A stretch of DNA of 33,504 bases. It comes from Fidelibacterota bacterium (GTDB lineage: Bacteria; Fidelibacterota; Marinisomatia; Marinisomatales; UBA1611). Made by a program: the position numbers and the translations under genes. The notes below the pieces were generated by a model. That model had not been told where the DNA came from, did no database searches, and worked only from the letters and a program-made list of their open reading frames with translations. The stretch spans positions 27,114 through 60,617 of the forward strand of contig JAYNUL010000001.1 in the NCBI GenBank assembly GCA_038281125.1. The letters are read 5' to 3'. Shown here in pieces: positions 9,999 through 33,504 of the stretch (its first letter is position 1; each line of letters begins with the position of its first letter).

Positions 9999-10031
9999 AA
10001 AAAAAAAGGGGGAGTAAAACTCCCCCTTTTT
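9999..10031 (-). terminator. Rho-independent terminator after the 1093-aa gene
   Basis: Perfect stem GGGGGAGT-aaa-ACTCCCCC (10008-10026), flanked by A9 (9999-10007, read as U9 on the minus transcript) and T5. It lies about 20 nt past the stop at 10051. Confidence 0.88.
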
Positions 10032-10050: not shown

Positions 10051-13000
10051 TTATTTCATTAATAACATTTTTCCAGTCAAGATTCTGTTATCTGAAGTCA
10101 CCTTATAAAGGTATAAACCGGATGGTACCTTTTGCCCCTGAGTATTATTAGCGTTCCATTGAATAGCATATGTACCCGCAATTAATTCGCCATTCTGGAG
10201 TGTAATAACCTCATTACCCAAGACATTGTATACTGTCACATTTACTTTTGAAGTATAGTCTAAGTCAAAACGAAGAGTTGTGACAGGATTAAATGGGTTA
10301 GGATGATTTCCTCGCAAAGCAAACTCTTTTGGAGTAATAATTTGGTCTTCTTCAGAAGCAAGAGTACCAATCCATGGATTGTCTAGATTATTATCTCCAA
10401 AAGTAGTCTGCAGTACTACGGTACCGCTTGCATCTGTGTTGGTGTAAAATACCTTATCTGCACCAAAGCCAGCCTCATTGTCAAGAGCTCCATTATCTCC
10501 ACCCTCATTTTCAATGCCTGGATAATATGCACCTAATTTATAGGTGAATACATTCCCATGGCCTGCAGGCAATGTTAATGAACCCGTGAACACACCATCT
10601 CCATCAGGATCAGTGAGTCTAGGCACATCTGGAGACACTACAGTTGCACAAGATGATCCCATGCAATCACCCCATGTACACCAGCAGTTTAAGAACGATC
10701 CATTCATAATGAGTGTATCAGGATAACCAGTAAAATATTCACCAGTATTAACATTAATGGTATTTTCCATCCAAGTAGCATGGATCTCAACCATTACTTC
10801 ATTCTGCAATTCACCTATTGGAAGGATCGCTGGTTGATCAGCTTCAAGAACTATATCTTCTCCAGTGAATTCAAATGTTCTGTCTGCACCTGTTTCCCAT
10901 CCATTATTGTTAAAGTTTTCATCAGGATTCGCTTTAAACTTCCATGTATGCATACTACCAGGTACTGCAGATATTGATTTGGTGAACGAATAAAGATTCG
11001 GATCTAATAGGTCTTGTTCGAAAACATCACCGGCACTCCAACCATTTACTCCACCTCTAAGCTCTAAGAAATGAGTATTATCATCCCAACCTTGAGAAAG
11101 TAGTGTTGTCATATCTGCTTGAAAGGTGACATTCGCCTCAACAGGGTCGCCTCCACAGGTATAGCATGAGCTAAAGCAAAATGGTTCAGTCATGGAATCT
11201 TCTTCGCCAACTACGATGGTACGATCACCCCAGTTGTCTCCATCTCCACAACCTTCATTTGTCAAATTACCTCCATCTTCATACCCTGCATCATTACCAC
11301 CATTATTAAACTTGTAATAATGTTCTCCAATTGAAAGTGCCATCTTTACCATATAGATTGTTTCTTCTTCAGGTACCAGTGTCATCAACTGATAGTTATT
11401 GTGCCACTGACCACCCCCAAGAAAAATGCCTTCCGTTGCAACTGGTGTTTCTTCCATGTCTACATGAAACACAACATAAGATTCATCACAAGAAATACAC
11501 TCCCCGAAACATACAGGGTCAAGGACGGTATTCACATCAGGGACAATCAAAAATCTGTCACTCCCAAAACCACCTGCTCCACCACATACTGGATCGGTTA
11601 CACTTTCATCATTTCCCCATGAATTACCATTAATGTATTTAAAATAGACAGTATCTCCAGCATTTGCTTCAAAATCCACAGTGTAGATACCATCATTATC
11701 ATAGTCCATCAGCTCTGTTGCACTTGGGTCCCATCCTTGGAAACTTCCAGCTACATGAACACCATCTTCAGACACCTCATGGTTTGTCATATCTAGATTC
11801 AAAGTAATGGTACGAGGTAGGAAGGGGTTTGCAGTATTATTACTACCGAAAACAGTTTCCAACGCAACAGTCCCGCTCGCGTCAGTTGGTATATAAAAGA
11901 CTTTGTCTGCACCAAAGCCTGCCTCATTGTCAAGAGCTCCATTATCTCCACCCTCATTTTCAATGCCTGGATAATATGCACCTAATTTATAGGTGAATAC
12001 ATTCCCATGATTTGCAGGAAGACTCAAAGTACCAACATAGATACCATCTCCATCTGAATCTGTGAGTCTTGGAACATCAGGCGAGACCGGATCAGAGCAC
12101 GCGGATCCCATACAATTTCCCCAAGTAAACCAGCCACCGAGGAAAGATCCATTCATGATAAGTGTATCAGGTGTCATTGAAAATGGTTCACCGCTATTGG
12201 CATTTAATGTACCTTCCATCCAAGTTGCATGTATTTCTACTTCAACAGCGTTAGCTAAAGGACCTACAGGCAATATTGCAGGAACTTCAGGTTCAAGTAC
12301 CATATCCTCTCCAGTGAAATAAAATGCTCTGTCTGCACCTGTTTCCCATCCATTATTGTTAAAATTTTCATCAGGGTTAGCTTTGAACTTCCATGTATGC
12401 ATACTGTAAGGAACTGCAGTCACCTCCTTGGTGAATGAGTAAAGATTTGGGTCTAGCAAATCTTGCTCAAAAACATCACCCGCAGACCAGCCATTTAACC
12501 CACCTCTAAGTTCTAGGAAGTGAGTTAGATCATCCCAGCCCTGAGATATCAATACGCTCATGTCAGCCTGAAAGGTTACATTAGCAGTTACTGGCGTAAT
12601 GCATGTCATACAGGAACCAAAACAAAATGGTTCTGTCATAGAATCCATTTCACCAACAGAAACAGTGCGATCGCCCCAATTGTTTGGATCACCACAACCT
12701 TCTGCAGAAAGGTTATCACCACTTTCAAACCCTGCATCATTCGCACCATTACTAAACTTATAATAGTGATCTCCTACGGGAAGAGCGATTTTAATCATAT
12801 ACAATGTTTCTTCATCAGGGACCAAAGTCATTTGATGAAAATTTGGATAAAACACTCCACCACCAAGAAAGACACCTTCCTCTGAAACTTGTGTCTGTTC
12901 CATATCTACATGAAAAGTCACATAGGACTCATCGCAACCAATACATTCGCTAAAACATACTGGATCAAGTACCGTATCTTCATCAGGAACATCTAGAAAT

Positions 13001-13332
13001 CTGTCGCTACCAAATCCACCTGCTCCTCCACAGACGAGATCGCTAACGCTTTCATCATTTCCCCATGAATTTCCATTGATATATTTAAAATAGACTGTTT
13101 CATCTGTTACGCCTGACATATCAACAACGACGGTGTAAACACCATCACCATCATCATCTGCCAAGGGTGTAGCAGCTGGATCCCAGCCCTGAAAACTACC
13201 TGCAACATGAACTCCATCATCTGAAACGGTTACATTAGACATATCAACATTTAATGTAACGTTTACAGCAAAGAGAGATGAGGTCATGGCTAGTAGCATG
13301 ATTTTAGAAAAAATCTTAAAACGATTTATCAT
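10051..13332 (-). CDS. Secreted non-catalytic multi-module protein: 2 x 4 putative CBM20/CBM48-like beta-sandwich modules plus Por/T9SS-type C-terminal sorting domain
   Basis: Sec signal (..SSLFA). Modules start VT[L/F]xVDM..GVHVAGSFQGWDP..DGDGVY..YFKY; the whole ~483-aa block is duplicated. C-terminus NHPNPFNPVT...VYNVLG...W...G..VPSGLYLY...KMLLMK. No GH catalytic motif seen. SD-like GGAG 6 nt before ATG. Glucan binding is inferred from motif resemblance and context. Confidence 0.72.
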   Translation of the reverse strand: MINRFKIFSKIMLLAMTSSLFAVNVTLNVDMSNVTVSDDGVHVAGSFQGWDPAATPLADDDGDGVYTVVVDMSGVTDETVYFKYINGNSWGNDESVSDLVCGGAGGFGSDRFLDVPDEDTVLDPVCFSECIGCDESYVTFHVDMEQTQVSEEGVFLGGGVFYPNFHQMTLVPDEETLYMIKIALPVGDHYYKFSNGANDAGFESGDNLSAEGCGDPNNWGDRTVSVGEMDSMTEPFCFGSCMTCITPVTANVTFQADMSVLISQGWDDLTHFLELRGGLNGWSAGDVFEQDLLDPNLYSFTKEVTAVPYSMHTWKFKANPDENFNNNGWETGADRAFYFTGEDMVLEPEVPAILPVGPLANAVEVEIHATWMEGTLNANSGEPFSMTPDTLIMNGSFLGGWFTWGNCMGSACSDPVSPDVPRLTDSDGDGIYVGTLSLPANHGNVFTYKLGAYYPGIENEGGDNGALDNEAGFGADKVFYIPTDASGTVALETVFGSNNTANPFLPRTITLNLDMTNHEVSEDGVHVAGSFQGWDPSATELMDYDNDGIYTVDFEANAGDTVYFKYINGNSWGNDESVTDPVCGGAGGFGSDRFLIVPDVNTVLDPVCFGECISCDESYVVFHVDMEETPVATEGIFLGGGQWHNNYQLMTLVPEEETIYMVKMALSIGEHYYKFNNGGNDAGYEDGGNLTNEGCGDGDNWGDRTIVVGEEDSMTEPFCFSSCYTCGGDPVEANVTFQADMTTLLSQGWDDNTHFLELRGGVNGWSAGDVFEQDLLDPNLYSFTKSISAVPGSMHTWKFKANPDENFNNNGWETGADRTFEFTGEDIVLEADQPAILPIGELQNEVMVEIHATWMENTINVNTGEYFTGYPDTLIMNGSFLNCWCTWGDCMGSSCATVVSPDVPRLTDPDGDGVFTGSLTLPAGHGNVFTYKLGAYYPGIENEGGDNGALDNEAGFGADKVFYTNTDASGTVVLQTTFGDNNLDNPWIGTLASEEDQIITPKEFALRGNHPNPFNPVTTLRFDLDYTSKVNVTVYNVLGNEVITLQNGELIAGTYAIQWNANNTQGQKVPSGLYLYKVTSDNRILTGKMLLMK
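10372..13263 (-). repeat. Intragenic tandem duplication of ~1449 nt (copy 1 ~13263-11812; copy 2 ~11811-10372)
   Basis: Matching peptides in both halves (YFKYINGNSWGNDESV, WKFKANPDENFNNNGWETGADR, HGNVFTYKLGAYYPGIENEGGDNGALDNEAGFGADKVFY). Identical DNA at 10472-10560 = 11921-12009 and 10879-10914 = 12328-12363, both with offset 1449. Confidence 0.95.
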
Positions 13333-13359
13333 TTATTTCTCCATTGTGTTTTGATTATT

Positions 13360-13383
13360 TAGTGACTCTGAACAGAGACACTA
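13360..13383. promoter_or_regulatory. Palindromic candidate operator, copy 1 (upstream of the 1093-aa gene)
   Basis: TAGTGACTCTG-AA-CAGAGACACTA: 11-bp arms with 1 mismatch, 27 nt upstream of the start codon, and similar to the palindrome at 21883-21906. Confidence 0.65.
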
Positions 13384-13464
13384 TTTTTTTTAAGTAAAAT
13401 AATCAATTTATTATTTTAATAATATAAATAAGATATTTCTATATTTACAAAACAATTTTTGCAA

Positions 13465-14472
13465 CTATAGTGAGGTTGTAAGGGTTATTTTTTGTGGATC
13501 TCCTAATGGACCCATATCTAAAAAAGTATAGTCTATAAAATAATGTGAATTAGCTATCTTCAATTTTATTCCGCATCCAATTGAAAATCCCGCAACGCTA
13601 TCTCTTTGATAAACATTAGCTAATCCCGATCGAAGGAATAAGAATTCCTTAAATACAAGCTCAGAGCCAAGATTAATACTTTCAGTATTATCATTAGGAT
13701 GGAGAGCATCAGCAGCAACTAATATGGATAAATCGCTAGGTAAATCTTTTTTATAGGCCAATCCAAAACGAAAAATGAGTGGTAACTCATACGCATCTGT
13801 TGCAAAATTTGCATTAATGTTGATGGGGTCAGACTCAAGACTTGGATCGACCTCTGTCTGCAACAATAGGTCACGCCCTTCCATCTGCATCTTTGTGCCA
13901 TAATTTGAAATACTCATACCCATGGTTAATCCAGGAATTTGGGTATTATAGAGCGTACCAAGATCAAGGGCAAAGCCATTGGCCTTAGAATTATATATAC
14001 TCTCCCGTATTACCTTTGCAGTTACTCCAAATGAAAATCTATCAGTAAGAGATCTTGAAAAGGTAAGCTGACCCATCATAGACCCTGCGCTAAATTTTTC
14101 TCCTGTCCCCTCTGGATCTCTAGTGGTTGTTACTTCCATTTCACCCATGTGCATAGCACTTATTGCTGCGCCAAGTGTACCAAAAGGAGTTTTATAGGAC
14201 CCACCAATGAAGTCCAGGTCCACATCCATTATCCAATCTTGATGATCAAGTATAATTCCATTTTTCTTGCTTGAAGACAATCCAGCAGGGTTCCAATAGA
14301 GAGCGGTTACATCATTTGATACTGCAGAATACGCCCCACCCATTCCAAGAGCCCTTGCTCCTATTCCTATTTTAAGAAACTGTGCAGCGGTTGTCCCAGT
14401 CTTTGAAACAGTCTGCGACATCAGTGGAAAACAAAAGACTATAATAACTATTTTAGTTAAATGAAATTTCAT
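13465..14472 (-). CDS. PorV/PorQ-family (UPF0164, FadL-like) outer-membrane beta-barrel
   Basis: Signal peptide followed by the family hallmark GTTAAQFLKIGIGARALGMGGAYSAVSNDVTALYWNPAGL, then alternating amphipathic strands. ATGA overlap with the upstream gene. Confidence 0.85.
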   Translation of the reverse strand: MKFHLTKIVIIVFCFPLMSQTVSKTGTTAAQFLKIGIGARALGMGGAYSAVSNDVTALYWNPAGLSSSKKNGIILDHQDWIMDVDLDFIGGSYKTPFGTLGAAISAMHMGEMEVTTTRDPEGTGEKFSAGSMMGQLTFSRSLTDRFSFGVTAKVIRESIYNSKANGFALDLGTLYNTQIPGLTMGMSISNYGTKMQMEGRDLLLQTEVDPSLESDPININANFATDAYELPLIFRFGLAYKKDLPSDLSILVAADALHPNDNTESINLGSELVFKEFLFLRSGLANVYQRDSVAGFSIGCGIKLKIANSHYFIDYTFLDMGPLGDPQKITLTTSL

Positions 14473-17400
14473 TTTATTACTGCAAATTTTCCTAAGTGCG
14501 GTTTAAAATCATATGCCCCCTGCCCTAATGGCTCAACATGATAAAAGTAAATTCCATATGCAATATCTAGATTATCTTTCGTGAGCATATTCCACTCAAG
14601 TGACCCATCATCTAGGCTTGTATTATGTTCAAGAGTATTTACCAGCTCTCCAGATAGAGTAAATATTTGAATTCTGCATTGCGGGGGAAGATGATTAAAA
14701 TGTATGGAACGCGGACCTCTTCCATCGGCATATGGATTTTGCCCTTCCCAACTTGCTGCTACAATGTAAGGATTTGGCACAACTTTTATTTTTTGAGATG
14801 AACTAGTCAGCAAACTCTGGTCAAACGAAGCGCCTTTAGAAATGAATTCATAGATATCAAAACTTGAAAAAGGTTTCGTCGTGTATAAAGCTAATGTGTC
14901 ACCCAGCTTTGGCACATCAAGATTTGGGATATTGTCATGCCCGGGAGTCACATTCCAAGTCACAAAGGAGGTATCACCTACCCTCTCCATTAATATAATT
15001 CGGTCCGAATAAGAGAAGTGTCCTGGCCTCGCTAGTTCTAGCTTTAGTGCATAGTCCGAACCAAAAGGTGTCCCAGTAAATCCAAAATCTGACCAGGTTC
15101 CAATAACGGTGTCAATTATGTTAAAATAATCAAACTGATCTTCTCTTAAATAAAATTCACTATTAATAATAGAATCAAGTGGTATAGAGTCAGGAAGACC
15201 AGGTGCCTTACTGTAATAAGTCCATGTTCTATCAATGATTGCCATATCAATGCTTAAATCTTGGTTGTCTAGATCAATAACTTTGAAATTTGCCATGGAA
15301 GAGTCTATAGTTATTGACTGACCATTTTCCCGAACTAGATTAACAGAATTTGTGGAAAATATTGCAGAATCAGAAAAAACTAAACCATAATTCCTTGGAT
15401 AGGCAACACCCTGGGTCGCAATACCTCCAAAGCTAAATGGACTGAATGTAAAATCATAATCTGATTCAGATTCAGGATAAAAGTGAGAAAGGTCGCTGTC
15501 TACGCTAATGGTTTTCTGATTACTGATCTCTAAGACCATTCCATCAAACTGTCCCAGGTCACCATCAAGGTCAGAACTCCAGGGGACTACAGTATCTAGT
15601 TCGGTACTGTTTGTAACGTTTACAACCATGAATTCAGTTGTCAATGGCACAGCCTCATCTAGATCAAATATATCGAGGTTTGGTTCTCCAAGATCAGGGA
15701 CTCCGTTACCCTCGGTCATCTCACCTTTATCAAATTCTCCATTATTTTCCGTACCGAATGGATTATAATTATAGTCGTAGTCATCATTGTTGGGATCAGG
15801 ATTTTGTGCAGCGTCAAATCCATATTCTTGTTCATTACATAACCCATCTGCCCCACAATCATTCCAATTGTCTTGATTTTCATCACCCGCACCCGGGTTT
15901 GCATAGTCATTGCACCCACCAAGCCCATCCTCAAAATAATCCAAACAACCATCCATCCCCACATCGTGTGAATCATCTGACCAGTCTCCATCATCGTCAA
16001 CCAAGTTCATTCGGGTATCTTTAAAGTAAACCCGATAGATATTATTGTCTGGAATTTTAGAGGGATCAATGTTGTTTATTTTCATGGTTCCAGTGCCCAC
16101 AGGTGTTGAAACTGGGTAGACATCCTTTTCTTTAGGCGCTTCAACATAGCCAATTGCAGGAGCATCGGGGACAACGGTAATAACATTCTTGGCAGTAATT
16201 ACCTTACCACCTCGGTTCATAGTCACAAATTTTGATGTCTCTGCGGGCAGGATTTCTTTTTCAATAGAGCCGTGATCATAGGCAGTGACCGCGTAAAAAT
16301 ATCGATGCCCGTTAATTACATTTGTATCGGTCCAGGAATGAACTAAGCCTGAATTGCTACCAAGATAAAATTGTACCCCATCTACGTGTCCAGGATAGAA
16401 ATCTTGGTGCTCGTTAATCTTGTCATATTGTTTAATGGGGATATTAAACTTTGCAGTGCCAAATGCATCCGTTACCACTCCAGCATCAGTAAACTGAGTA
16501 TCAGTAGCTTTGTAAATTTTATACCCTTCAAAGTCATCTCCGGTAATCCTGTCAACAGATAGTTCCGCGTTATCGTCCCAATAAATTGTTACGTAACCGT
16601 CGCCTGAATAGGCCCATACGCTTGGTAGATCTGGTGCCTTTGCAAAATTATAGTTTTGATTATATATGGTCTGCACTGTCTGCTTATTGCGAACCAGGTC
16701 AGGAAGATTATCACCAAATAATAATGCAATAGAGAATCGTTCCGTAAGGTTTTTTCTTAGAGGAAAATATCCTGAACTAAATAGAAAGTCAGCATCTGTA
16801 TTGGAAATGGAATTGTTAAAATAACCGGGCAACATTTCCTCCCAGAGCCTAGGATCATCATTCATCTGTGGACCTACACCAAAATTGAAATAGTAGAAAC
16901 TTGAAAGACCTATTTGGTCCGATTCATCTACATCTGTTTTATCAATATTTGGCTCCCCAGGAAGGTCTGTACCCATTCCTGATGTTGGAAGGCCATCACC
17001 CTCTCCAAGGTCACCACTGCCTGGCATACCATCTATCCCTACATCATCCGTTGCCAGATTCCAGTCGCCATCATTGTCAATACCATCCTCCCTGCTCTCA
17101 TCAATGAGTCTATTATCCAGACCAATGCCAGTAAAATAGTCTATATATTTTAGACCATCTCCAGATAGAGCATCAAAATACAAGTAGGTGTCTTCAAACA
17201 CTCCAGGAGCTAACTCAATGGACGCTCCATTGTTCTCATCAATAAGACCGTTTAGATTATCATCAATCAGATTTCTGGGTATTTCTTCAAGGAGTTGACC
17301 TGGCATAAACAAATGCTCACTATTAGATTTTTGAATAGTAACACCAGCTGAGGGCATGGTTGCCAGAGTTCTCTCATATGTCTGGTAGTCAATCACAACA

Positions 17401-18437
17401 ACTGTATCACCAACTGCGAAAGAGCGGCTAGAAAATACCTCCTCTGAAAGAGTGAGCCCCGTTCCCTCAGATCCATCACCATCGTTATCTATCCCATCAT
17501 ATGGATTACCAGGACTCTCTAAAAATGCATAACCTGCAAGACCAACCGGTGACCAGCCACTGGATCCTATACCACCTAACCCTGTCTCTAAATCAGTTCC
17601 GTTATCATACGAAAATGCAATGTCATCTGATTTCTCAAAGTCAGCCCAGTCATCTCCGCTATCACCATCTCCGCCTGTAATTGTACCAACAATATAGCCA
17701 AATACCATTTTTTCCATATCATAATCGCTGATATTTTTAATATCATATAGCCAAAATAATACATCCTCTGCCAGTATATGATTCCACTGTAGTCCTCTCT
17801 GCGTACATCTAAGTCCCATCCCACGACGTTCAAGATCATTTGAATCCGGAAAATAAAAGAATTCTGCATCTTGCGCATCATCCATAACAAAATAGCTTTC
17901 CTGTTCTGCATTTTTCTGATCTTTACCAAAGTAACCATTCCAAGAACCTGCCCAACCCGGATCAAGGGGGTCATCTAGCTTATCTGGCCACTGATCTGGC
18001 CAGGTGTTTACATTTGCATTTTCACCATCAGAAGGCCCCATGTGGCTCATGGCAACTAATGGCGTATCTGGGTTACTATATCCTGGTAAAGGCTCCCAAC
18101 CCCAATGAGTATCAAGATTAAACTCACTTCCTCTAGGACTATCTATGGTAATTACGCTCTTTTTCTTAATATTATTTAGATCAACAAATTCTGTTCCCAC
18201 CATGTGTCCAACGTCACCAATATATTCATGGCCTGAGTTTATTGGCCATTCCCCGCCGATATCTTCTGGCTCACTTGTCCAGCGCCCTACCAGACCATAG
18301 TTATAGAATGTAGTTCTAATCTTGTTACCAGAGTGATCGTTTTTTGCTCTTGCGAGTGAATTTCCTTTTGGCCCACTAGCAAAAGCAATGCCCATTGATA
18401 GGAATAGAAGAGTAAATACGTATAAAAATCTTTTCAT
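14469..18437 (-). CDS. Large acidic secreted protein of unknown function (1322 aa) with Dx[D/N]xDG loops, an Fn3-like segment and a variant C-terminal sorting domain
   Basis: Sec signal with no lipobox Cys; many DGIDNDGD-type motifs; Fn3-like AP.LP...VTIYWD...FEGYKIYK...WTDTNVINGHRYFYAVTAYD; C-terminus IKVVPNPY...IQIFTLSGELV...W...IAYGIYFYHV...KFAVIK. Confidence 0.75.
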   Translation of the reverse strand: MKRFLYVFTLLFLSMGIAFASGPKGNSLARAKNDHSGNKIRTTFYNYGLVGRWTSEPEDIGGEWPINSGHEYIGDVGHMVGTEFVDLNNIKKKSVITIDSPRGSEFNLDTHWGWEPLPGYSNPDTPLVAMSHMGPSDGENANVNTWPDQWPDKLDDPLDPGWAGSWNGYFGKDQKNAEQESYFVMDDAQDAEFFYFPDSNDLERRGMGLRCTQRGLQWNHILAEDVLFWLYDIKNISDYDMEKMVFGYIVGTITGGDGDSGDDWADFEKSDDIAFSYDNGTDLETGLGGIGSSGWSPVGLAGYAFLESPGNPYDGIDNDGDGSEGTGLTLSEEVFSSRSFAVGDTVVVIDYQTYERTLATMPSAGVTIQKSNSEHLFMPGQLLEEIPRNLIDDNLNGLIDENNGASIELAPGVFEDTYLYFDALSGDGLKYIDYFTGIGLDNRLIDESREDGIDNDGDWNLATDDVGIDGMPGSGDLGEGDGLPTSGMGTDLPGEPNIDKTDVDESDQIGLSSFYYFNFGVGPQMNDDPRLWEEMLPGYFNNSISNTDADFLFSSGYFPLRKNLTERFSIALLFGDNLPDLVRNKQTVQTIYNQNYNFAKAPDLPSVWAYSGDGYVTIYWDDNAELSVDRITGDDFEGYKIYKATDTQFTDAGVVTDAFGTAKFNIPIKQYDKINEHQDFYPGHVDGVQFYLGSNSGLVHSWTDTNVINGHRYFYAVTAYDHGSIEKEILPAETSKFVTMNRGGKVITAKNVITVVPDAPAIGYVEAPKEKDVYPVSTPVGTGTMKINNIDPSKIPDNNIYRVYFKDTRMNLVDDDGDWSDDSHDVGMDGCLDYFEDGLGGCNDYANPGAGDENQDNWNDCGADGLCNEQEYGFDAAQNPDPNNDDYDYNYNPFGTENNGEFDKGEMTEGNGVPDLGEPNLDIFDLDEAVPLTTEFMVVNVTNSTELDTVVPWSSDLDGDLGQFDGMVLEISNQKTISVDSDLSHFYPESESDYDFTFSPFSFGGIATQGVAYPRNYGLVFSDSAIFSTNSVNLVRENGQSITIDSSMANFKVIDLDNQDLSIDMAIIDRTWTYYSKAPGLPDSIPLDSIINSEFYLREDQFDYFNIIDTVIGTWSDFGFTGTPFGSDYALKLELARPGHFSYSDRIILMERVGDTSFVTWNVTPGHDNIPNLDVPKLGDTLALYTTKPFSSFDIYEFISKGASFDQSLLTSSSQKIKVVPNPYIVAASWEGQNPYADGRGPRSIHFNHLPPQCRIQIFTLSGELVNTLEHNTSLDDGSLEWNMLTKDNLDIAYGIYFYHVEPLGQGAYDFKPHLGKFAVIK

Positions 18438-21400
18438 TTAGAGAGATAGGTTAATACCTACGTTAATTCGTCTTGGTTCACCATACCAGTCTGGCTTTAG
18501 CAAGTGTTCATTGAGATGACCTATCCTTCCAGGATCGGTAAGAGAGACATCTTTTGCAGTAAGTGTATATGTTGATCGCCCGGTGTCATTCCATACAGAG
18601 AATTCATTTTGTACATCAAGGAGGTTATAAATATTGCAATATATATTTGATTTTAGCCCAAGCAGATTAATAGAATATGATGCACGAAGGTCCAAATCAA
18701 ATACGTTTGGTTTTCTCTCGCTGTTATCAGCAAAGCCGGCAAATGCTCCTGACCCTGAGACCACACCAGTCTTAAACTCAGGCGTGTATGGTTTTCCTGT
18801 CCACAGTTTACCAATGGAGCTTATGATCCAATTTTTCCCGCCAATTGTCCCACGAAAATTAAGTGTGTGAGTCTGATCCCAGTCAAGAGGTAACATATTC
18901 AATCTTGGTGCCTGATTATCTTGAGCATCAAAATATGCATCTTGTGGGTTGGAATATGTACCTTCCGCGATCATCCAGGTATAATCAATACCACCTCCAA
19001 ACCTACCCGTGAATTGTCGATCTAAAACAAGAGTGAACCCGCGCGTATTTGCATAGTCTTTATTCTCATATTTTCTGTAGTTCCCCACTGGGTATTTTTT
19101 TATCGCGGTGCTTACCCCAACCCAGTCTCTGGTATCCCGGTAAAATACAGTAAGGTCGATAGATGTTCTGTAAGCGATCTCTTGTTTAAATCCAATCTCA
19201 TACATGACTGTCTTTTCAGGTTTTAGCGCTGCGTTGCCAAGTATCCCACCGTTATTATTGTTTGTAATTTCAAATTCAGGATTCTCATATAAAAAACTAA
19301 AATTTGGTACCTGAAAGAAGTGCCCATAAGAAACATGAACGACACCTTTGTCAGTGATTGGATAGGCTATCCCAATCCGAGGACTTATCTGGAAAGATGA
19401 CTTTACCTTCTTATATCCGTATCCCCACCTATAGGCATCACGATAATCCATTAGTTGTCTGTTAAAAGCCTGACCATATGACTCTACCGTTGAATCAAAC
19501 TCGACTCCAGCAGTGAAAAGATTTTCAATCGAAACTGCTCCCTGTTGGCTAATAGAATCAATAATGGATACATCACTATGTAATATTGAAAAATCGTGTT
19601 CCCAAAAAACGGATGTATCCCTTTTTGTTGTTGCAAGATAATATTTTAGGTTGCCAGGGAGTTGCTCATTCATGGGGACTTTCCACGCTGGATCAAAATA
19701 GTCAAAACGCGTACCTGCGTTGATAATTAATTCATCTAATTCAATTTTATCTTGAATATATATTGATAGCTCTTTGGGACTAACTCTAAAATAGTCATGC
19801 TCAGAGGTATAGGTGGGATTAATTACTGGAGTAAATGGACTGATTCTCCCTCCTGCAAGAGGATTGTATCCAAGAGTATCCCCACTCTGTGTAATAGACC
19901 ACTCGCCGACCGTTTTATAGTTTAAAAACTTATCATCTGCCCAAATATCATATACTTTATAAAGTATTCCTGCTTTAATCAAATGAATAGGATTTAATTG
20001 AGAGGAAAGATCAAGTTTTATTTGTTTAAAAGATGTGTTCCTGCTAAACCGTCCATTTTGAGTCCCTCCCATTCCAAATGACCAAGCCGGAGTGATAAAC
20101 TGATCACCCGCAACATACCCTGTTTGATCCCTCATATCAATGACCTCATACATGTCATTACCAATCGGGGTTACGTTATACCGTGAAAGGTCCTGAAATA
20201 AATCATAGCCAGTTCTAACCTGTATTGAATCATTCAAATTGATACCATTGAGCTCGTTCTGATCCATTATGACTTTTGAGTATGGCACATCATTCTGATC
20301 ATAAAGCCTCTGGTTATAGCCGCTGCTAAAATCAAGGTATTTAAGTTCATAAAAAGTGTTTTGACTTAAACTGTGAGTTAGGGAAAACATATGGGACTGA
20401 TCAGATTCATAGTTCCAGAGTAAACCCTCTGGATTATACTTATAGTAACTGTCATAGTTTTTATAGGATTTTTCAGTTATATAACCAGTGTAACTCGCCT
20501 TAATCCCTGATCGAATTTTATACGTAAGCTTGAACTGGCCTGATAGTCTTTTAAATGGTGACAATGGGACAATCTTCTCATCACTAAATAAGCCTGTCGG
20601 AGTGAATAATTTCCTACCATAATAACGTCCTGATGATTGGAAATATCTGAAAGTGGAGTAAAAGGTTAGCCTGTCACCAAAAATGGGAACCGGGCCGCTC
20701 AAACTCCCAGAAACATTAGATTGTTGAAAAATATTTTCAAAAATATTTAAATACTTTGTATATCCATCATCATCTAAACTGAATTCATGCTCACCCCAAT
20801 CTCTGCGCCCGTTCCCCTCTCCAGGGCTTGGTTGCGTAGTTTTTCCATCACCGTTGTAATCATAATAGTCTCCAAGGTGCCCGTCATAACCAACATCATC
20901 GTTCAAAGGCTCAGAGCCTTCATCTCCATCCCAGGTTTGATTACCGTTTCTGTCCCAATAAATTTCCCCCTCGTCCCAGATACCATTATTATTTAAATCG
21001 TAAAGAATTTCACCATAATCCCAGTTTCCGTCACCGTTAATATCCGTAAAAGATTGCCAATTGGAAAAGGGTGACGATAGCGAATATATGTCTGAATGAT
21101 TTGAATGATAACCTCCTGCATAGAAGTCAAGATTCCCATCATAATTCTGACCTCCGTCCTTGGTTACCACATTTACAATACCGGACATTGCCTGCCCGTA
21201 CTCCGCGTTAAAAGTACCCGAGATTACCTGAACCTCTTGAATACCAGCATTCTCAATCTCCAAGCCAGAGCTACCGTCATAAGAGTCCGTAGTAGCAACA
21301 CCATCTACCCAAAAAGAAACTTCACTGCTGCGCCCGCCCCTTACATGAAAACCACCATTTGGATCACGCACAATTCCAGCCTGCAGCTCGATTATATCCC

Positions 21401-21830
21401 CCACATCAGTTACTGGTAAATTTTCGATATCTTCAGAACTCACTACCGCGGACATTGATGTTTGATCTAATCGAACAGTGGGCTTTTCTGCAGTTACGAC
21501 TATTTCCTCTCCTTCTATTGTCTCTGGCCTTAAGGAAAAATCAGCTCTTGCTGTTAGATCCACTATAACCTGTGCGCCCTCGATAGTTACAGTGCCGTAT
21601 CCAATCATTGAAGCAGAGATTTGATATATTCCAGGTGGAACGTTCAAAATAAAGTATTCACCCTCAAGATTAGTAGCAGCACCGTAGGAAGTGCCCTTAA
21701 CAATGATATTACATCCTATCAGAGGCTCATCGTTCTCATCTGCAACCCTCCCAGATATTTTCCCAGTTGTACCCGCGTACAATAATTGTGACAATAAAAA
21801 GATGGTAATGATGAATTTTAAATTTTTCAC
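18438..21830 (-). CDS. TonB-dependent receptor with N-terminal carboxypeptidase-regulatory-like domain (non-SusC type)
   Basis: GTG start and signal peptide; GKISGRV.D...EPLIGCNI...G.YFILNVPPG.Y; plug FHVRGGRS.EV...ISGTFNAEYGQAMSGIVNVVTK; barrel motifs SPRIGIAYP, SYGHFFQ, LKPEKTVMYEIG, NIYNLLD, PRRINVGINLSL. Confidence 0.92.
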   Translation of the reverse strand: MKNLKFIITIFLLSQLLYAGTTGKISGRVADENDEPLIGCNIIVKGTSYGAATNLEGEYFILNVPPGIYQISASMIGYGTVTIEGAQVIVDLTARADFSLRPETIEGEEIVVTAEKPTVRLDQTSMSAVVSSEDIENLPVTDVGDIIELQAGIVRDPNGGFHVRGGRSSEVSFWVDGVATTDSYDGSSGLEIENAGIQEVQVISGTFNAEYGQAMSGIVNVVTKDGGQNYDGNLDFYAGGYHSNHSDIYSLSSPFSNWQSFTDINGDGNWDYGEILYDLNNNGIWDEGEIYWDRNGNQTWDGDEGSEPLNDDVGYDGHLGDYYDYNGDGKTTQPSPGEGNGRRDWGEHEFSLDDDGYTKYLNIFENIFQQSNVSGSLSGPVPIFGDRLTFYSTFRYFQSSGRYYGRKLFTPTGLFSDEKIVPLSPFKRLSGQFKLTYKIRSGIKASYTGYITEKSYKNYDSYYKYNPEGLLWNYESDQSHMFSLTHSLSQNTFYELKYLDFSSGYNQRLYDQNDVPYSKVIMDQNELNGINLNDSIQVRTGYDLFQDLSRYNVTPIGNDMYEVIDMRDQTGYVAGDQFITPAWSFGMGGTQNGRFSRNTSFKQIKLDLSSQLNPIHLIKAGILYKVYDIWADDKFLNYKTVGEWSITQSGDTLGYNPLAGGRISPFTPVINPTYTSEHDYFRVSPKELSIYIQDKIELDELIINAGTRFDYFDPAWKVPMNEQLPGNLKYYLATTKRDTSVFWEHDFSILHSDVSIIDSISQQGAVSIENLFTAGVEFDSTVESYGQAFNRQLMDYRDAYRWGYGYKKVKSSFQISPRIGIAYPITDKGVVHVSYGHFFQVPNFSFLYENPEFEITNNNNGGILGNAALKPEKTVMYEIGFKQEIAYRTSIDLTVFYRDTRDWVGVSTAIKKYPVGNYRKYENKDYANTRGFTLVLDRQFTGRFGGGIDYTWMIAEGTYSNPQDAYFDAQDNQAPRLNMLPLDWDQTHTLNFRGTIGGKNWIISSIGKLWTGKPYTPEFKTGVVSGSGAFAGFADNSERKPNVFDLDLRASYSINLLGLKSNIYCNIYNLLDVQNEFSVWNDTGRSTYTLTAKDVSLTDPGRIGHLNEHLLKPDWYGEPRRINVGINLSL

Positions 21831-21880
21831 AATGTTATAGATTAAGGGACTACTATATGCCGTAAATGTTTAAATTATCT

Positions 21881-21908
21881 ATTAGTAACTCTATTTAGAG
21901 TTATTAAT
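21881..21908. promoter_or_regulatory. Palindromic candidate operator, copy 2 (divergent receptor/trmB intergenic region)
   Basis: ATTAGTAACTCTA-TT-TAGAGTTATTAAT: 13-bp arms with 1 mismatch, near the middle of the 139-bp divergent spacer. Confidence 0.72.
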
Positions 21909-21969: not shown

Positions 21970-22767
21970 ATGAAAGAAATTCAAAGTTTTTTGGTGAAAT
22001 TTGGCTTTACAAATAATGCTGCCAAAGCATACACAGCACTCTTAAAGAATAGTCCTTCCACAGGGTACGAGATCAGCTCTCAGACTGATATCCCCAGGTC
22101 GGCAATTTATAATGTATTGAATAGGCTTGTTAGTCAGGGCTATGCAAATAGCGTAGGTGATTCTCCTAAAAGATACATCCCTCTTCAGCCACCTGCTTTA
22201 ATTGCTCTATTAAACCAATCACACAATGAAAAGTTAGATGGCTTAGAAGAAGCAATTAAAAATATTGAAATCGATGATCAAACTTTTGATTTTTGGCACT
22301 TGCATGGATATCGGAATATCATATTAAAAGCAAAAGAGCTAGTTAAGAATGCCAAGAAAAAGATAGTAATCAGTGGATGGAAAAGAGAAATTGTTGAAAT
22401 AAAAAAAGAACTGATTTCTGCAAAGAAACGAGGAATTGAGAATACTATATTTTCTTTTACGAGTATAGATAAAAGTCTGGGGAAAATAGTTTCATACGAG
22501 CTTAATGAAGATGATTTAAGAAAAATATGGACACCAAAAATCATTATGATTGTAGATAACCAACATACAATTATGGGTAGTACAAAAAAAACAGATGACT
22601 GTAAAGCTATTCTAACAAAGAATACCGCCATTAATGAAATTGCAACGAATCACATCATCCTAGATATCACACTTGCAGGGCGCCGTTTAGGATTTGAATC
22701 TGATTCCTATGTAAAAAATATCATGCGTGATCCAGCTGAAAATCTGCAGCACTTGTTAAACGTTTAA
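21970..22767 (+). CDS. TrmB-family transcriptional regulator
   Basis: N-terminal winged HTH (GFT..AAKAYTALL....TGYEIS..TDIPRSAIYNVLNRLVSQG..P.RY.P), a linker helix, and a C-terminal effector domain (G..NI....ELVKNAKKKIVIS...IMIVDN). Confidence 0.85.
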   Translation: MKEIQSFLVKFGFTNNAAKAYTALLKNSPSTGYEISSQTDIPRSAIYNVLNRLVSQGYANSVGDSPKRYIPLQPPALIALLNQSHNEKLDGLEEAIKNIEIDDQTFDFWHLHGYRNIILKAKELVKNAKKKIVISGWKREIVEIKKELISAKKRGIENTIFSFTSIDKSLGKIVSYELNEDDLRKIWTPKIIMIVDNQHTIMGSTKKTDDCKAILTKNTAINEIATNHIILDITLAGRRLGFESDSYVKNIMRDPAENLQHLLNV

Positions 22768-22804
22768 TTAGCATAATCATTGCTGTAAGGTTGAACATAT
22801 TTTG

Positions 22805-24307
22805 ATGGAAAGGTATTCAAATAAACAAAGATCAAGCGGAGTTTTATTGCATATTTCCTCTCTACCAGGTCCATATGGTATTGGCGAAATTGGAAATGAG
22901 GCAAAAGCTTTTATAAATGATCTTGTTACGATGAATCAACAATATTGGCAAATTCTTCCCACAAATTATCCAGAAAGACATAATAGCCCATATGACACTA
23001 ATTCTGCCTTTGCTCAAAATCCGTTTTTAATTAGCTTAGATGGATTAATAGAAGATGGGCTTCTAAGTGAATCTGATTTGGAACCAATACCAGAATTCAC
23101 AATTAATAAGGTTGAGTTTGAAAAGTTAAAAAAATGGAAACATATACTTCTTAGTAAAGCTGCAACCAATTTTTCAAATACAGATAACAATGATCTAGTT
23201 AATTATCATGAATTTTGTGAAAAGCAAGGGTTTTGGCTCAATGGTTATGCAACTTTTATGGTATTAAAAGAAATGCAAGACCAAACAGATTGGTCTTATT
23301 GGGAGTTAAAGTATAGAAAGTTCAATGAGAATATCCTTGATGAAATAGAATCCATAAAAAAAAGTGAGATTGAAGAAATAAAAATATTACAATACTTATT
23401 TCACAAACAATGGAAGACACTGAAAACATTTGCCAATGATAAAGGAATTAAATTAATTGGAGACATTCCTATTTACATATCTTTCAACAGCGCAGATGTG
23501 TGGACAAACCAAGAACTTTTTAAATTAGATAAAAGTTGTAAAATGAAGTGCCAGTCCGGGGTACCTCCAGATCATTTTATGGAATCCGGACAGCTATGGG
23601 GGCACCCTATATATAACTGGGAGGAACATGAAAATTCAGGTTTTTCATGGTGGGTAAATCGTATAAACCACACGATGCAATACGTTGATTTAATAAGAAT
23701 TGATCATTTTAATGGTTTTGCAAAATATTGGGAGGTCCCGATTCAGGATTTAGATGCAGCCGGAGGTCGGTGGGTCAAGGCTAAAGGAATCGAGCTTCTT
23801 AAAGAAGTCTTTAAGAACAATAATAAGGTTAACCTAATTGCTGAAGACCTAGGCGAGGCATCTGTTGATGCTGCGGTATTACGAAATAAATATGGTATTC
23901 CTGGGATGAATGTACTGCAGTTTCTATTTTATGATGGGGATAGTATTGATAACATTGAAGAGAATACAGTTTTGTATACAGGCACACATGATAACGACAC
24001 CTCGATTGGTTGGTTTGAGTCTTTAAATAATAAACTGTCTATTGATGAGATCAATGATCTTAAAAATATTTTAAATTCAGATTCGAAAGGTATGAATTGG
24101 TCAATGATAGAATTTTCTTTCCAAGCACGCGCAAAAACCGTAATTGTACCAGTCCAAGATATTTTAGGATTAGGTTCAGATTCACGAATGAATACTCCAG
24201 GCACCATTAGTGAAAATAATTGGTCATGGAGGATGGATAGTAGCGAACTAAAGGATACGATGTTGAGAAAAATGAGAGACATTACTGAAGAGGCAAACAG
24301 AGCATGA
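22805..24307 (+). CDS. malQ: 4-alpha-glucanotransferase (amylomaltase, GH77)
   Basis: RSSGVLLHISSLPG, WQILP, IGDIPIY, SGVPPD.F...GQLWG.P; catalytic RIDHF, IAEDLG and TGTHDNDT; RMNTPG, NWSWR. ATG 22805 follows TTG 22802. Confidence 0.95.
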   Translation: MERYSNKQRSSGVLLHISSLPGPYGIGEIGNEAKAFINDLVTMNQQYWQILPTNYPERHNSPYDTNSAFAQNPFLISLDGLIEDGLLSESDLEPIPEFTINKVEFEKLKKWKHILLSKAATNFSNTDNNDLVNYHEFCEKQGFWLNGYATFMVLKEMQDQTDWSYWELKYRKFNENILDEIESIKKSEIEEIKILQYLFHKQWKTLKTFANDKGIKLIGDIPIYISFNSADVWTNQELFKLDKSCKMKCQSGVPPDHFMESGQLWGHPIYNWEEHENSGFSWWVNRINHTMQYVDLIRIDHFNGFAKYWEVPIQDLDAAGGRWVKAKGIELLKEVFKNNNKVNLIAEDLGEASVDAAVLRNKYGIPGMNVLQFLFYDGDSIDNIEENTVLYTGTHDNDTSIGWFESLNNKLSIDEINDLKNILNSDSKGMNWSMIEFSFQARAKTVIVPVQDILGLGSDSRMNTPGTISENNWSWRMDSSELKDTMLRKMRDITEEANRA

Positions 24308-25947
24308 ATGAACAATTTGAAATAGCATATTTTTCTGCTGAAATAGGTATATCATCAAGCATACCAACATACAGCGGAGGATTGGGAGTGTTAGCAGGGG
24401 ACCATATAAAATCGGCAGGAGATGCAAATTTAAGCATGTGCGCTATTACGTTACTATATAAGGAGGGATATTTCAAACAACGCATTGATGAAAATGGCGT
24501 GCAAACAGAAACCTATCCAAGATTTGACCCCGACCCATTGATAAAACAATTAGATTTACGTTTTTCACTTGAGCTTCAAAACAGGGAAGTATTTATACAG
24601 GTGTTTAAATTTGATTATACATCAAACTCTGGCCACCGCGTCCCAATATACTTTTTAGATACAGACTTAGACGTAAACACAAAAGAAGATCGTAGTATTA
24701 CCCATAGACTTTATTCTGGAGACAAAGATCACAGGATCCTTCAAGAATCCATTCTTGGTTTTGGTGGAATAAAACTATTAGAAAGTCTGAAGCAAAATAA
24801 TATTAAAACCTATCACATGAATGAGGGACATTGTTCATTTTTAACCCTTAGTCTTTTGGATAAATTTGGTGGAGATGAAGAGAAAGTGAGAGCTCTTTGC
24901 CACTTCACTACTCATACTCCTGTTCCTGCGGGGCACGACCATTTTTCAATGGACCGTGTAAAAACTAAACTCAATGGTCTGCTGCCAAATGATTTAACGT
25001 TGCCTTCAATAAAAGATTCGCAAAGATTGCACATGACAGAACTTGGATTACATTTTAGCAGAACTGCTAATGGAGTGTCAGAGCTGCATGGCGATGTTGC
25101 ACAGAATCAGTTTCCATGGAAGGATATTGGATATATAACCAATGGCGTACATCACAGCTATTGGATGGGTACATCTTTAAAAGGTGTTTTTGATAAGCAT
25201 CTACCTGGGTGGAGACTTGATCCAGACAAGTTACTTCAAATTGATTCAATTCCTGATAAGGTTCTTCAAAAGGCGCATCTAGATAGGAAAAAAAAGTTGA
25301 TTTCTTATGCCAACTCTCAGACTGGAAAAGTATTAGACCTGGATACACTAACCATCGGATTTGCAAGGCGGTCTGCAACATACAAAAGAGCTCAATTACT
25401 CTTTTATAACCTAGAAAGACTTCGACAGCTAGGGCAAAAGAAGATTCAAATAATCTATTCAGGAAAAGCACATCCAAATGATGGAGAAGGTAAAGAATTA
25501 ATCCGCGAAATTGTTCAAAAATCCCATAACCTATTTGGATCAATTAAAGTTATATATCTTGAAAATTATGATATGTGGCTTGGAAGATTGATTACCTCAG
25601 GAGTTGATGTTTGGCTAAATACACCACTTAGACCGAACGAAGCATCAGGCACAAGTGGAATGAAAGCAACCTTGAATGGTGTTCCTAATCTTTCTGTCTT
25701 AGATGGTTGGTGGGCCGAAGGGTGCAATCACAAGGTTAATGGCTGGGCTATAGGGGATCCAAGTGATCCAAATGATGAGAAAGATTCCGATCACTTGTAT
25801 CATCTACTAGAAGATCAAATTATTCCAATGTTTTACCAAGATAAAGAAAAGTGGGTTGCTATGATGAAAGAAGCTATTAAAACAGGAGTAGGGTATACAG
25901 CATATAGAATGATAAGTGAATATAAAAATAAATATTACAAGGTATAG
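24304..25947 (+). CDS. glgP: Alpha-glucan (maltodextrin/glycogen) phosphorylase, GT35, compact 547-aa form
   Basis: IAYFSAE, YSGGLGVLAGDH, HMNEGH, FTTHTPVPAGHD, ITNGVH, GFARR.ATYKR, GKAHP, and the PLP-lysine motif EASGTSGMKA. Confidence 0.93.
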   Translation: MNEQFEIAYFSAEIGISSSIPTYSGGLGVLAGDHIKSAGDANLSMCAITLLYKEGYFKQRIDENGVQTETYPRFDPDPLIKQLDLRFSLELQNREVFIQVFKFDYTSNSGHRVPIYFLDTDLDVNTKEDRSITHRLYSGDKDHRILQESILGFGGIKLLESLKQNNIKTYHMNEGHCSFLTLSLLDKFGGDEEKVRALCHFTTHTPVPAGHDHFSMDRVKTKLNGLLPNDLTLPSIKDSQRLHMTELGLHFSRTANGVSELHGDVAQNQFPWKDIGYITNGVHHSYWMGTSLKGVFDKHLPGWRLDPDKLLQIDSIPDKVLQKAHLDRKKKLISYANSQTGKVLDLDTLTIGFARRSATYKRAQLLFYNLERLRQLGQKKIQIIYSGKAHPNDGEGKELIREIVQKSHNLFGSIKVIYLENYDMWLGRLITSGVDVWLNTPLRPNEASGTSGMKATLNGVPNLSVLDGWWAEGCNHKVNGWAIGDPSDPNDEKDSDHLYHLLEDQIIPMFYQDKEKWVAMMKEAIKTGVGYTAYRMISEYKNKYYKV

Positions 25948-25956
25948 GGTATAATA

Positions 25957-30476: not shown

Positions 30477-30485
30477 TATAAGAGC

Positions 30486-32468: not shown

Positions 32469-33504
32469 AATATACATATCTTTTATTACTATCTTTTTTT
32501 TTGATATGCTGTGGAGGTGAAAATTTGAGTTTTTCGAACCTTGAATGGATAAATAATCAAACAATCTATGAGGTGAACCTAAGGCAATACACCCCTGAGG
32601 GTACTTTCGCATCTTTCCGGGAGCATCTTCCAAGACTAAAAAAAATGGGAGTCGGTGTTTTATGGTTTATGCCCATCCACCCAATTGGTGAAAAAAATAG
32701 GAAAGGCATACTAGGAAGTTATTATTCTGTAAGAGATTATCTTGATATAAACCCAGAGTTTGGCACTAAGAAAGAATTTAAATCTCTTGTAGATGAAATT
32801 CATAAAATGGGGATGTATGTTATAATTGATTGGGTCGCAAATCATACGGCATGTGATAATGCTATAGTATCTGATAATCCTGATTGGTATACTAGAAATA
32901 AAAGTGGAGATTTTCAACCTCCAACAGGGACTGATTGGAGTGACGTCTATGATTTAGACTTTTCTAACCCTGATTTAAGAAGCTATATGACCAACGCAAT
33001 GGAATATTGGGTTAAAGAATTTGATATTGATGGTTTTAGATGCGATGTTGCGGGCATGGTGCCTACAGATTTCTGGGAGACCACAATAAATAAGCTAAGG
33101 TCCATCAAACCAGTCTTTATGCTAGCTGAATGGGAGGATCCAGAATTATTAAATAAAGGTTTTCAAGCAGATTACAGTTGGCAACTTTATCATATTATAA
33201 AAGATGTCTCTAATGGCAATAAAGAGGTATCGGACATTCGCGATTTTTATGAAAATCCAAAAAAGAAGTATCCTGAAGGTGCATTAAAAATGAACTTTTT
33301 AGATAATCATGATGAAAACAGTTGGAACAGAATAATGGTTCAACACTTCAAGGAGAAAGTGTATCCATTATCAACTATGTTATTCACATTACCTGGAATA
33401 CCCATGATATATTCTGGACAGGAGGCTCGATTAAATAAAAGATTAAAATTTTTTGAAAAAGATACAATCGATTGGGGTACTTTTTCAGATGAGAATTTTT
33501 ATAA
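32465..33504 (+). CDS. GH13 alpha-amylase-family lipoprotein, 3'-truncated by the window (absent from ORF track)
   Basis: My translation from ATG 32465 (ATGA overlap): MKYTYLLLLSFFLICCGG...IYEVNLRQYTPEGTF...LWFMPIHPIG...GSYYSVRDY...DWVANHT...DGFRCDVAGMVP...MLAEWE...FLDNHDEN...GIPMIYSGQE. The frame is open to the window end. Confidence 0.92.
   Translation, partial: MKYTYLLLLSFFLICCGGENLSFSNLEWINNQTIYEVNLRQYTPEGTFASFREHLPRLKKMGVGVLWFMPIHPIGEKNRKGILGSYYSVRDYLDINPEFGTKKEFKSLVDEIHKMGMYVIIDWVANHTACDNAIVSDNPDWYTRNKSGDFQPPTGTDWSDVYDLDFSNPDLRSYMTNAMEYWVKEFDIDGFRCDVAGMVPTDFWETTINKLRSIKPVFMLAEWEDPELLNKGFQADYSWQLYHIIKDVSNGNKEVSDIRDFYENPKKKYPEGALKMNFLDNHDENSWNRIMVQHFKEKVYPLSTMLFTLPGIPMIYSGQEARLNKRLKFFEKDTIDWGTFSDENFY

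Follow-up and report, generated by a model that had tools for sequence, protein, structure and literature searches.

The stretch of DNA analysed here, called the window in what follows, comprises 33,504 nucleotides of a Fidelibacterota genome (assembly GCA_038281125.1, contig JAYNUL010000001.1, positions 27,114 to 60,617 of the forward strand). It belongs to the Marinimicrobia (SAR406), an abundant group of ocean bacteria with hardly any cultured members. The window holds a two-armed locus of predicted alpha-glucan uptake and digestion genes, in which the gene of a TrmB-family regulator is divergent from that of a TonB-dependent receptor, as well as two similar palindromes, O1 and O2, which an earlier note on this DNA had proposed as operators of that regulator. 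The features of the locus are the following, in window coordinates and with the scores obtained by O1 and O2 in the weight matrix presented below.

10003..10031, minus strand: canonical intrinsic terminator, possibly bidirectional; a G+C-rich stem of 13 pairs (6 G-C pairs) followed by a T-run, which ends the minus arm
10051..13332, minus strand: secreted protein of 1093 amino acids (aa) with several carbohydrate-binding modules (CBM48, X25, AMPK1_CBM) and a sorting tail of the type IX secretion system (T9SS), behind O2
13358..13385, core 13362-13381: predicted operator O2, TTTAGTGACTCTGAACAGAGACACTATT, the genome's second-best matrix match (18.4)
13465..14472, minus strand: PorV/PorQ-family outer-membrane protein, 335 aa (NF033709 at 196 bits for a cut-off of 90; PF19572), third gene of the minus arm
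14469..18437, minus strand: 1322-aa protein matching no Pfam or NCBIfam family, second gene of the minus arm
18438..21830, minus strand: TonB-dependent receptor, 1130 aa, with Plug, beta-barrel and CarboxypepD_reg domains, first gene of the minus arm
21881..21908, core 21885-21904, GTAACTC-N6-GAGTTAT: predicted operator O1, ATTAGTAACTCTATTTAGAGTTATTAAT, the genome's best matrix match (28.1)
21970..22767, plus strand: trmB, coding for a 265-aa TrmB-family regulator, at the head of the plus arm
22802..33502, plus strand: the plus arm after trmB, with a GH77 4-alpha-glucanotransferase, a glucan phosphorylase, a sodium:solute symporter and three GH13 genes

Read from the window, the two palindromes are TAGTGACTCTGAACAGAGACACTA at 13360-13383 and TAGTAACTCTATTTAGAGTTATTA at 21883-21906, exactly the 24-mers and coordinates of the earlier note, whose count of 16 identical positions out of 24 was likewise reproduced for the direct alignment (18 out of 24 against the reverse complement). 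In each of them, 10 of the 11 arm pairs are complementary. As also claimed, they occupy the two longest intergenic spacers of the locus, which measure 132 bp for O2 and 139 bp for O1 according to the list of open reading frames (ORFs), the next longest having 73 bp. More precisely, O1 stands in the divergent spacer, 50 bp from the start of the receptor gene and 61 bp from that of trmB, while O2 lies 79 bp past the stop of the PorV-like gene and 25 bp ahead of the start of the 1093-aa gene, with unequal half-sites of which the weaker reads GTGTCTC on the gene strand. Since about eight distinct palindromes of comparable quality are present in the window, palindromy alone is unremarkable, and it is the sequence shared by O1 and O2 that counts.

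Both palindromes are copies of a 20-bp motif, GTAACTC-N6-GAGTTAC, that is kept across the Marinimicrobia. The 73 distinct sites used to train a 28-bp matrix came from other genomes, and neither the window nor the two contigs of its closest relative contributed to them; across these sites ACT and AGT are invariant, the adjoining C/G pair takes 140 of the 146 symmetrised counts, and the centre is free. Scanning the genome from which the window comes, a 2.12-Mb draft of 333 contigs with 35.5% G+C that is 79% complete, placed O1 and O2 as the top two of only four matches above 8. The other two are intragenic and were dropped as chance matches: one at 15.1 (C169:260-287) lies inside a large outer-membrane-protein ORF, and one at 10.5 (C56:6212-6239) inside a ribosomal-protein ORF. 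Besides O1 and O2, the best score within the window is -3.7. The chance expectation per genome amounts to 0.0009 matches at 28 or above and 0.19 at 18.4 or above, and 28 of 200 symmetric column permutations of the matrix yielded any match of at least 18.4. As for the background frequency of the motif itself, copies within one mismatch of the consensus number two in the genome, both at this locus, the next ones requiring four mismatches.

The earlier note had made its proposal dependent on conservation of the motif in orthologous loci, and such conservation is seen at both positions. TrmB orthologues are encoded in 18 of 41 related genomes, and within this set of relatives 18 of 19 loci have the motif, with at most three mismatches, at a distance of 32-235 bp upstream of trmB. 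Of the public Marinimicrobia/Fidelibacterota loci, 70 offer 300 bp of DNA upstream of trmB, and 65 of them contain a matrix site scoring at least 18 in that interval, a count to be taken as descriptive. The 72 public loci (549,286 bp) hold 95 occurrences of the pattern with two mismatches or fewer and 92 matrix sites of at least 18, 86 of these being located immediately before or after trmB and six elsewhere; a site just after trmB, ahead of the next gene, is seen in 15 loci other than the window. When nine spacers are aligned, the O1 block is invariant and its flanks diverge; the half-sites stay invariant while flanks and central N6 vary, much as in a footprint. Besides, the site persists next to trmB while the gene divergent from it changes, this gene coding for a GH13 enzyme (40 distinct proteins), a TonB receptor (15, in as many loci orthologous to the receptor of the window) or a GHMP kinase (6).

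A clade-specific symmetric variant of the motif, GTAACTA-N6-TAGTTAC, was observed at about -32 of trmB in four public loci (L040, L090, L093, L095), and is accompanied by the canonical form after trmB in L040 and upstream in L093.

For the second site, orthologous loci were located by searching with the PorV-like protein. Among those with at least 53% identity, a site lies in the spacer after the PorV-like gene in 7 of 9 (the window, G003, G018, G019, G017, G040 and G027), and the genes behind these orthologous sites carry CBM48/X25, CBM20, CBM53 or AMPK1_CBM modules. G003 shares both half-sites with O2 and departs from it at most of the six central bases. As to 21 more distant paralogous loci, three have a site, all in TrmB-positive genomes, and the other 18 have none.

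The two orthologous loci devoid of the site belong to G002 and G007 (68% and 84% complete), in which no TrmB was found by protein search or by a profile search run without a positive control. The best matrix score is -3.9 in G002 and 0.0 over a 19.9-kb stretch of G007, where a GH13 gene, the receptor, the 1322-aa homologue, the PorV-like gene and a CBM protein have kept their order and trmB is missing. Over the 41 related genomes, the pattern with at most one mismatch is present in 18 of 18 TrmB-positive genomes (48 sites versus 13 for a reversed control) and in 5 of 23 TrmB-negative ones (9 versus 11); the genomes are kin and not independent, hence no p-value is attached to this co-occurrence. 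These data bear on whether the palindrome could be bound by some other regulator and owe its proximity to trmB only to a shared alpha-glucan locus. A perfect site between GH13 genes of G025, a genome with no detectable TrmB, would fit such an explanation. It is nevertheless improbable, given that the site accompanies trmB across three different divergent neighbours, that the G007 locus has kept the target genes with neither trmB nor site, that the counts in TrmB-negative genomes equal those of the reversed control, and that no other regulator family was found by Pfam among the 21 ORFs of the window. TrmB is very probably the protein that binds the sites.

The genes led by the sites further delineate the predicted regulon. 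Counted as distinct proteins, the site-led targets are the following.

GH13 alpha-amylases: 40
TonB receptors: 15
GH77 enzymes: 9
starch-binding proteins: two clusters of 6
GHMP kinases: 6
GH57 enzymes: 5
glyceraldehyde-3-phosphate dehydrogenase (GAPDH): 3

The expectation expressed in the earlier note that genome-wide hits should lie upstream of sugar-metabolism genes is borne out in the 96% complete genome G037, where all six sites with at most one mismatch stand upstream of alpha-glucan or glycolysis genes, namely a unit formed by GH13, peptidyl-prolyl isomerase, receptor, 1371-aa and PorV-like genes, a CBM20/53 protein, the trmB/receptor pair, a T9SS-tailed protein, a GH57 enzyme and GAPDH. 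Sites located 29-73 bp upstream of GAPDH were observed in L132, L134 and L143, which represent three genomes from three families; going by the sequences, they extend the predicted regulon to glycolysis, in parallel with the control of gapII by the haloarchaeal TrmB.

The possibility that the palindromes act as hairpins, whether as an intrinsic terminator, a repetitive extragenic palindromic (REP)-like repeat or an RNA structure, was considered alongside their placement. Both are inverted repeats with 10 of 11 pairs, and O2 comes past the 3' end of the PorV-like gene with a T-run alongside on the plus strand, as a terminator might. However, with respect to every gene there this T-run is on the antisense strand, relatives have not conserved it, and terminator calling returned none at O1 or O2, whereas a canonical one was called 3.3 kb away, at 10003-10031. 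The latter, located directly after the 1093-aa gene, is the window's only G+C-rich palindrome with 11 of 11 pairs; it exemplifies the appearance of a terminator in this genome and looks different from O1 and O2. In addition, the earlier note had named a position mainly at gene 3' ends as evidence for a terminator- or REP-like element: among the 111 distinct sites scoring at least 18 in all fetched loci, none lies between convergent genes, 67 lie between divergent and 38 between tandem ones, the rest being three inside doubtful ORF calls and three at locus edges. The copy count relevant to a REP-like repeat is two for the genome, in an assembly that is 79% complete. Finally, departures from the consensus core are one-sided, in 19 of 19 cases at columns 5/24 and in 40 of 44 at columns 7/22 (both sides in the other 4), so base pairing is not maintained. 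O1 and O2 thus show the marks of neither an intrinsic terminator, nor a REP-like repeat, nor a structured RNA; the hairpin explanation is largely refuted and its residual probability is very small.

The same independence of the two halves affects the claim that the palindromes are covarying. The symmetric differences between O1 and O2 at positions 5/20 and 11/14 are literally present, but they fail as evidence of covariation because the halves vary independently. Positions 11/14 fall within the unconserved central N6, and the columns corresponding to 5/20 are off consensus in 44 of 98 distinct sites, on both sides in four of them and still complementary in three. The symmetric change between O1 and O2 is a coincidence of independently varying half-sites and not a general rule.

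Two recurrent half-site variants were also observed. On the one hand, the right half-site reads GAGTTAT instead of GAGTTAC in 9 of 9 aligned receptor-type spacers (window 21899-21908 and eight related ones), which creates TTATTAAT, a sequence resembling a -10 box that overlaps the operator on the trmB side. On the other hand, at the O2-type position (window 13372-13385; L101, L103, L104, L137; G032:C2:33315), the weaker GT(A/G)TCTC recurs as one of the half-sites in several genera; this recurrence suggests a deliberately lower-affinity operator.

With regard to the regulator itself, TrmB proteins form dimers, and the 265-aa protein has the DNA-binding part expected of this family. The winged helix-turn-helix PF01978 is matched at residues 9-74 with 67.8 bits for a cut-off of 25.6, and the best PDB sequence match by phmmer is Pyrococcus furiosus TrmB (3qph_A, E 6.9e-12, residues 3-161). 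Tyr47 aligns with the DNA-contact Tyr50 of that protein and is invariant in 18 of 18 orthologues, while the neighbouring D51 of P. furiosus is N48 here. PF01978, the contact tyrosine and a palindromic operator, all marks of the TrmB family, are thus found together, the operator being predicted from sequence; in public annotation, these proteins are named 'TrmB family transcriptional regulator'. An AlphaFold2 model (pLDDT 87) displays the winged helix, a long coiled-coil helix and one alpha/beta subdomain, and its best fold matches by Foldseek are TrmBL2 (E 3.8e-14) and TrmB.

The effector part is shorter than in sugar-sensing members. PF11495 is matched with 36.1 bits over profile positions 2-105 of 233 only, the model covers 132 columns of the 233-residue sugar-binding domain 2f5t, and alignments to TrmB, TrmBL1 and the haloarchaeal equivalogs end at about residue 170, with NCBIfam scores of 61-63 bits for cut-offs of 600-650; the orthologues are mostly 264-290 aa long. 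Hence, the complete effector domain of the sugar-sensing TrmB subgroup is not found here, the second subdomain being absent. In P. furiosus TrmB, six of the seven sugar contacts are described as belonging to that second subdomain (N305, G320, M321, V324, I325, E326; excerpt of PMC4158304). Because it is absent, a sugar inducer is not predicted by homology, and a maltose- or glucose-type effector appears doubtful on sequence grounds. Speculatively, the conserved aromatic and polar residues of the first subdomain, whose invariant positions are W109, H110, Y114, W137, Y176, W187, D196, N218, D232 and R239, may hint at another ligand site.

The reading that the palindromes are operators of the TrmB regulator encoded at 21970-22767, which would control genes for alpha-glucan uptake and digestion, is given a probability of about 0.8. 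This proposal of the earlier note is supported by conservation in orthologues, the genome scan, site orientation and the sugar-gene targets. In the mechanism envisaged, a TrmB dimer would bind the 20-bp GTAACTC-N6-GAGTTAC with one winged helix per half-site. From O1, it would control the plus arm (trmB, GH77, the phosphorylase, the symporter and the three GH13 genes), so that the regulator would be autoregulated, as well as the minus arm (TonB receptor, 1322-aa and PorV-like proteins). From O2, it would control the 1093-aa starch-binding surface protein, or block read-through into its gene, which ends at the canonical terminator. Repression would take place by promoter occlusion or as a roadblock and would be lifted by an alpha-glucan-derived signal.

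Regarding the direction of control, the end of the 28-mer lies at a median of 29.5 bp from the start codon of the divergent gene and at 25 bp from that of the 1093-aa gene. At such distances no core promoter fits between site and gene, and therefore a bound dimer would sit on or behind the promoter, which argues for repression. That TrmB represses is accordingly rated as somewhat probable, and the chances that the inducing signal is a sugar are evenly balanced. TrmB could also use the same operators as an activator, or as an activator or repressor depending on position, as TrmBL1/Tgr, the haloarchaeal TrmB and Sulfolobus MalR do; dual and activator-only members of the family are indeed described in PMC4158304. 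Towards trmB, most loci have 61-95 bp between the site and the start codon; this leaves promoter room downstream of the site, in an activator-like position, and an ATATTAG or ATATTA element recurs 5-10 bp beyond the site, at a near-fixed distance, in many GH13-type loci (L039-L075). Activation is nonetheless unlikely, since ahead of the divergent gene and at O2 the start codon follows too closely for a core promoter to lie in between, and since the cited activation mechanisms use the archaeal TBP/TFB machinery, absent from bacteria. As an observation on this element, ATATTAG is a candidate -10 box, which would put the operator over the -35 box and spacer of the trmB promoter.

Several points weigh against the proposal of TrmB operators. 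The score of O2 (18.4) is below the training minimum of 19.4, and because about 0.19 such chance matches are expected per genome, O2 is not significant by score alone; it is significant by its place, intergenic and in the same locus, and by conservation of the orthologous position. The count of 65 out of 70 is not independent, the matrix having been trained on those same loci. The perfect site of G025, a genome that is 96% complete, stands between two divergent GH13 genes (L136, G025:C18), and no TrmB match was obtained there by protein search or by a profile search that had no positive control; G010 (81% complete) and G023 (57% complete) also hold plausible sites with no TrmB match. Taken together, five TrmB-negative genomes were submitted to the profile search, which returned no TrmB and included no positive control. 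The protein has no second effector subdomain, and a sugar inducer is not implied by homology. Finally, sigma-70-type scans placed no convincing promoter at O1 or O2, with seven weak matches near O2 (2.3 in shuffles) and one near O1 (1.9 in shuffles).

Transcript data cover little of the window: RNA-library runs contain at most 0.11 of its words, as assembled contigs in which strand and transcript ends are unreadable. The RNA pieces listed cover parts of the receptor, 1322-aa, PorV-like and 1093-aa genes and little on the trmB side; among them, one ends at 13352 and another at 21889, none bridges O2, and nothing is drawn from the gaps.

Comparison with archaeal members of the family, for which excerpts of the published descriptions were used, helps to situate the motif. 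Archaeal TrmB proteins bind palindromes at sugar-gene promoters, with the motifs TACT-N3-AGTA, TATCAC-N5-GTGATA and TACT-N7-8-GAGTA (PMC4158304); the last one, the haloarchaeal motif, had been correctly quoted in the earlier note. Like the TrmB of Halobacterium salinarum (VNG1451C), the system described here has palindromic sites at promoters of sugar and central-carbon genes, and GAPDH, a target in three Marinimicrobia genomes, corresponds to gapII, a target in haloarchaea (PMC10817205). Both consensus strings include ACT-N7-GAGT, this being a comparison of strings and not a statistical test, whereas the outer bases differ, with GTAAC here. However, H. salinarum TrmB is 360 aa long, its effector domain is complete (G337, E343) and its target promoters number about 113, while the present protein has 265 aa, no second subdomain and two sites in a 79% complete genome.

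Like the TrmB of P. furiosus and Thermococcus litoralis, which acts on the trehalose/maltose and maltodextrin operons, the protein would be a local repressor of alpha-glucoside uptake genes encoded in the cluster that it controls, and it shares with P. furiosus TrmB the DNA-contact tyrosine (Y50 there, Y47 here). By contrast, the half-sites of TACT-N3-AGTA are N3 apart there and effectively N8 here, the targets are an ABC transporter there and a TonB-receptor/T9SS system here, and P. furiosus TrmB binds its sugar in the subdomain that is absent here. Similarly, TrmBL1/Tgr and the Thermococcales glycolytic motif TATCAC-N5-GTGATA offer an inverted repeat ahead of amylase, transport and glycolysis genes, and the position of the site decides on its effect (excerpt of PMC4158304); half-site sequence and spacing are different, though, and TrmBL1 is a global regulator forming tetramers or octamers with a full effector domain. 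TrmBL2 (PDB 5bpd, 5box, 5bqt) has the same length and architecture, with about 264 aa and no second effector subdomain, but is described as a chromatin protein binding coding and intergenic DNA alike, whereas a sharply defined palindromic site and a small sugar regulon are predicted here. The lack of sequence preference typical of TrmBL2 is thus not what the motif indicates, confined as it appears from sequence to a few intergenic places.

Within bacteria, SusR, in starch utilisation by Bacteroidota, is a locus-encoded regulator over genes for a TonB-dependent receptor, surface glycan-binding proteins and glycoside hydrolases. By analogy with such loci, one regulator would be encoded here with receptor, glycan-binding and glycoside-hydrolase genes, although it is of a different family, and no SusD-type gene was detected by Pfam, the 1322-aa and PorV/PorQ-family proteins being present instead. 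In the open-access literature, searched by titles and the beginnings of abstracts, no sugar-gene TrmB operator in bacteria was found described, nor, in open-access literature, any operator or regulon for the TrmB of Marinimicrobia, any regulatory circuit in these bacteria or any study of this locus. An autoregulated local regulator with a palindromic operator is a textbook design; it is the binding site for this group that seems to be undescribed.

The motif therefore constitutes a testable candidate operator for a two-domain bacterial TrmB, and it allows membership of the alpha-glucan regulon to be predicted in metagenome-assembled genomes, the predicted members being TonB receptor/PorV-like units, secreted starch-binding proteins, GH13, GH77 and GH57 enzymes, as well as GAPDH in some lineages. 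It also provides a simple system for the way in which a TrmB that lacks the known sugar pocket senses its signal. A broader and tentative proposal, with the odds rather against it, is that a short TrmBL2-like TrmB devoid of the canonical pocket could be a sequence-specific, signal-responsive regulator of alpha-glucan genes throughout the Marinimicrobia, sensing through its first subdomain and sharing an ACT-N7-GAGT core code with the haloarchaeal TrmB. If so, the invariant residues of the first subdomain would mark a new effector site, and the ACT-N7-GAGT recognition code would have been kept across two domains of life.

Some further features of the locus and of its relatives deserve mention. 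In the plus arm, one of the GH13 genes codes for a T9SS-tailed protein, one for a protein with CBM48, and one runs off the window; intergenic gaps of this arm do not exceed 34 bp and contain no further site. Orthologues of the 1322-aa protein in G003, G007 and G002 have 70-87% identity, and gene order is kept.

As to the relatives, two near-identical trmB-receptor copies are present on contigs C6 and C28 of G003 (L002/L019, L028/L029), both of their TrmB proteins being about 88% identical to that of the window; this duplicate region probably reflects two strains in one bin. In L058 and L090, a Marinimicrobia-type trmB with its operator was observed in bins labelled Winogradskyella and Dehalococcoidia, and these contigs are probably mis-binned.

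Lastly, the first three genes of the minus arm form a unit that recurs, consisting of a TonB receptor with CarboxypepD_reg, a family-less protein of 1300-1370 aa and a PorV/PorQ protein (window 13465-21830; L155 6313-14430; L156 5084-12865). The PorV-like query gave eight matches in this genome and matches in 41 of 41 relatives, and the three-gene unit may be the phylum's counterpart of the SusC/SusD uptake pairs.

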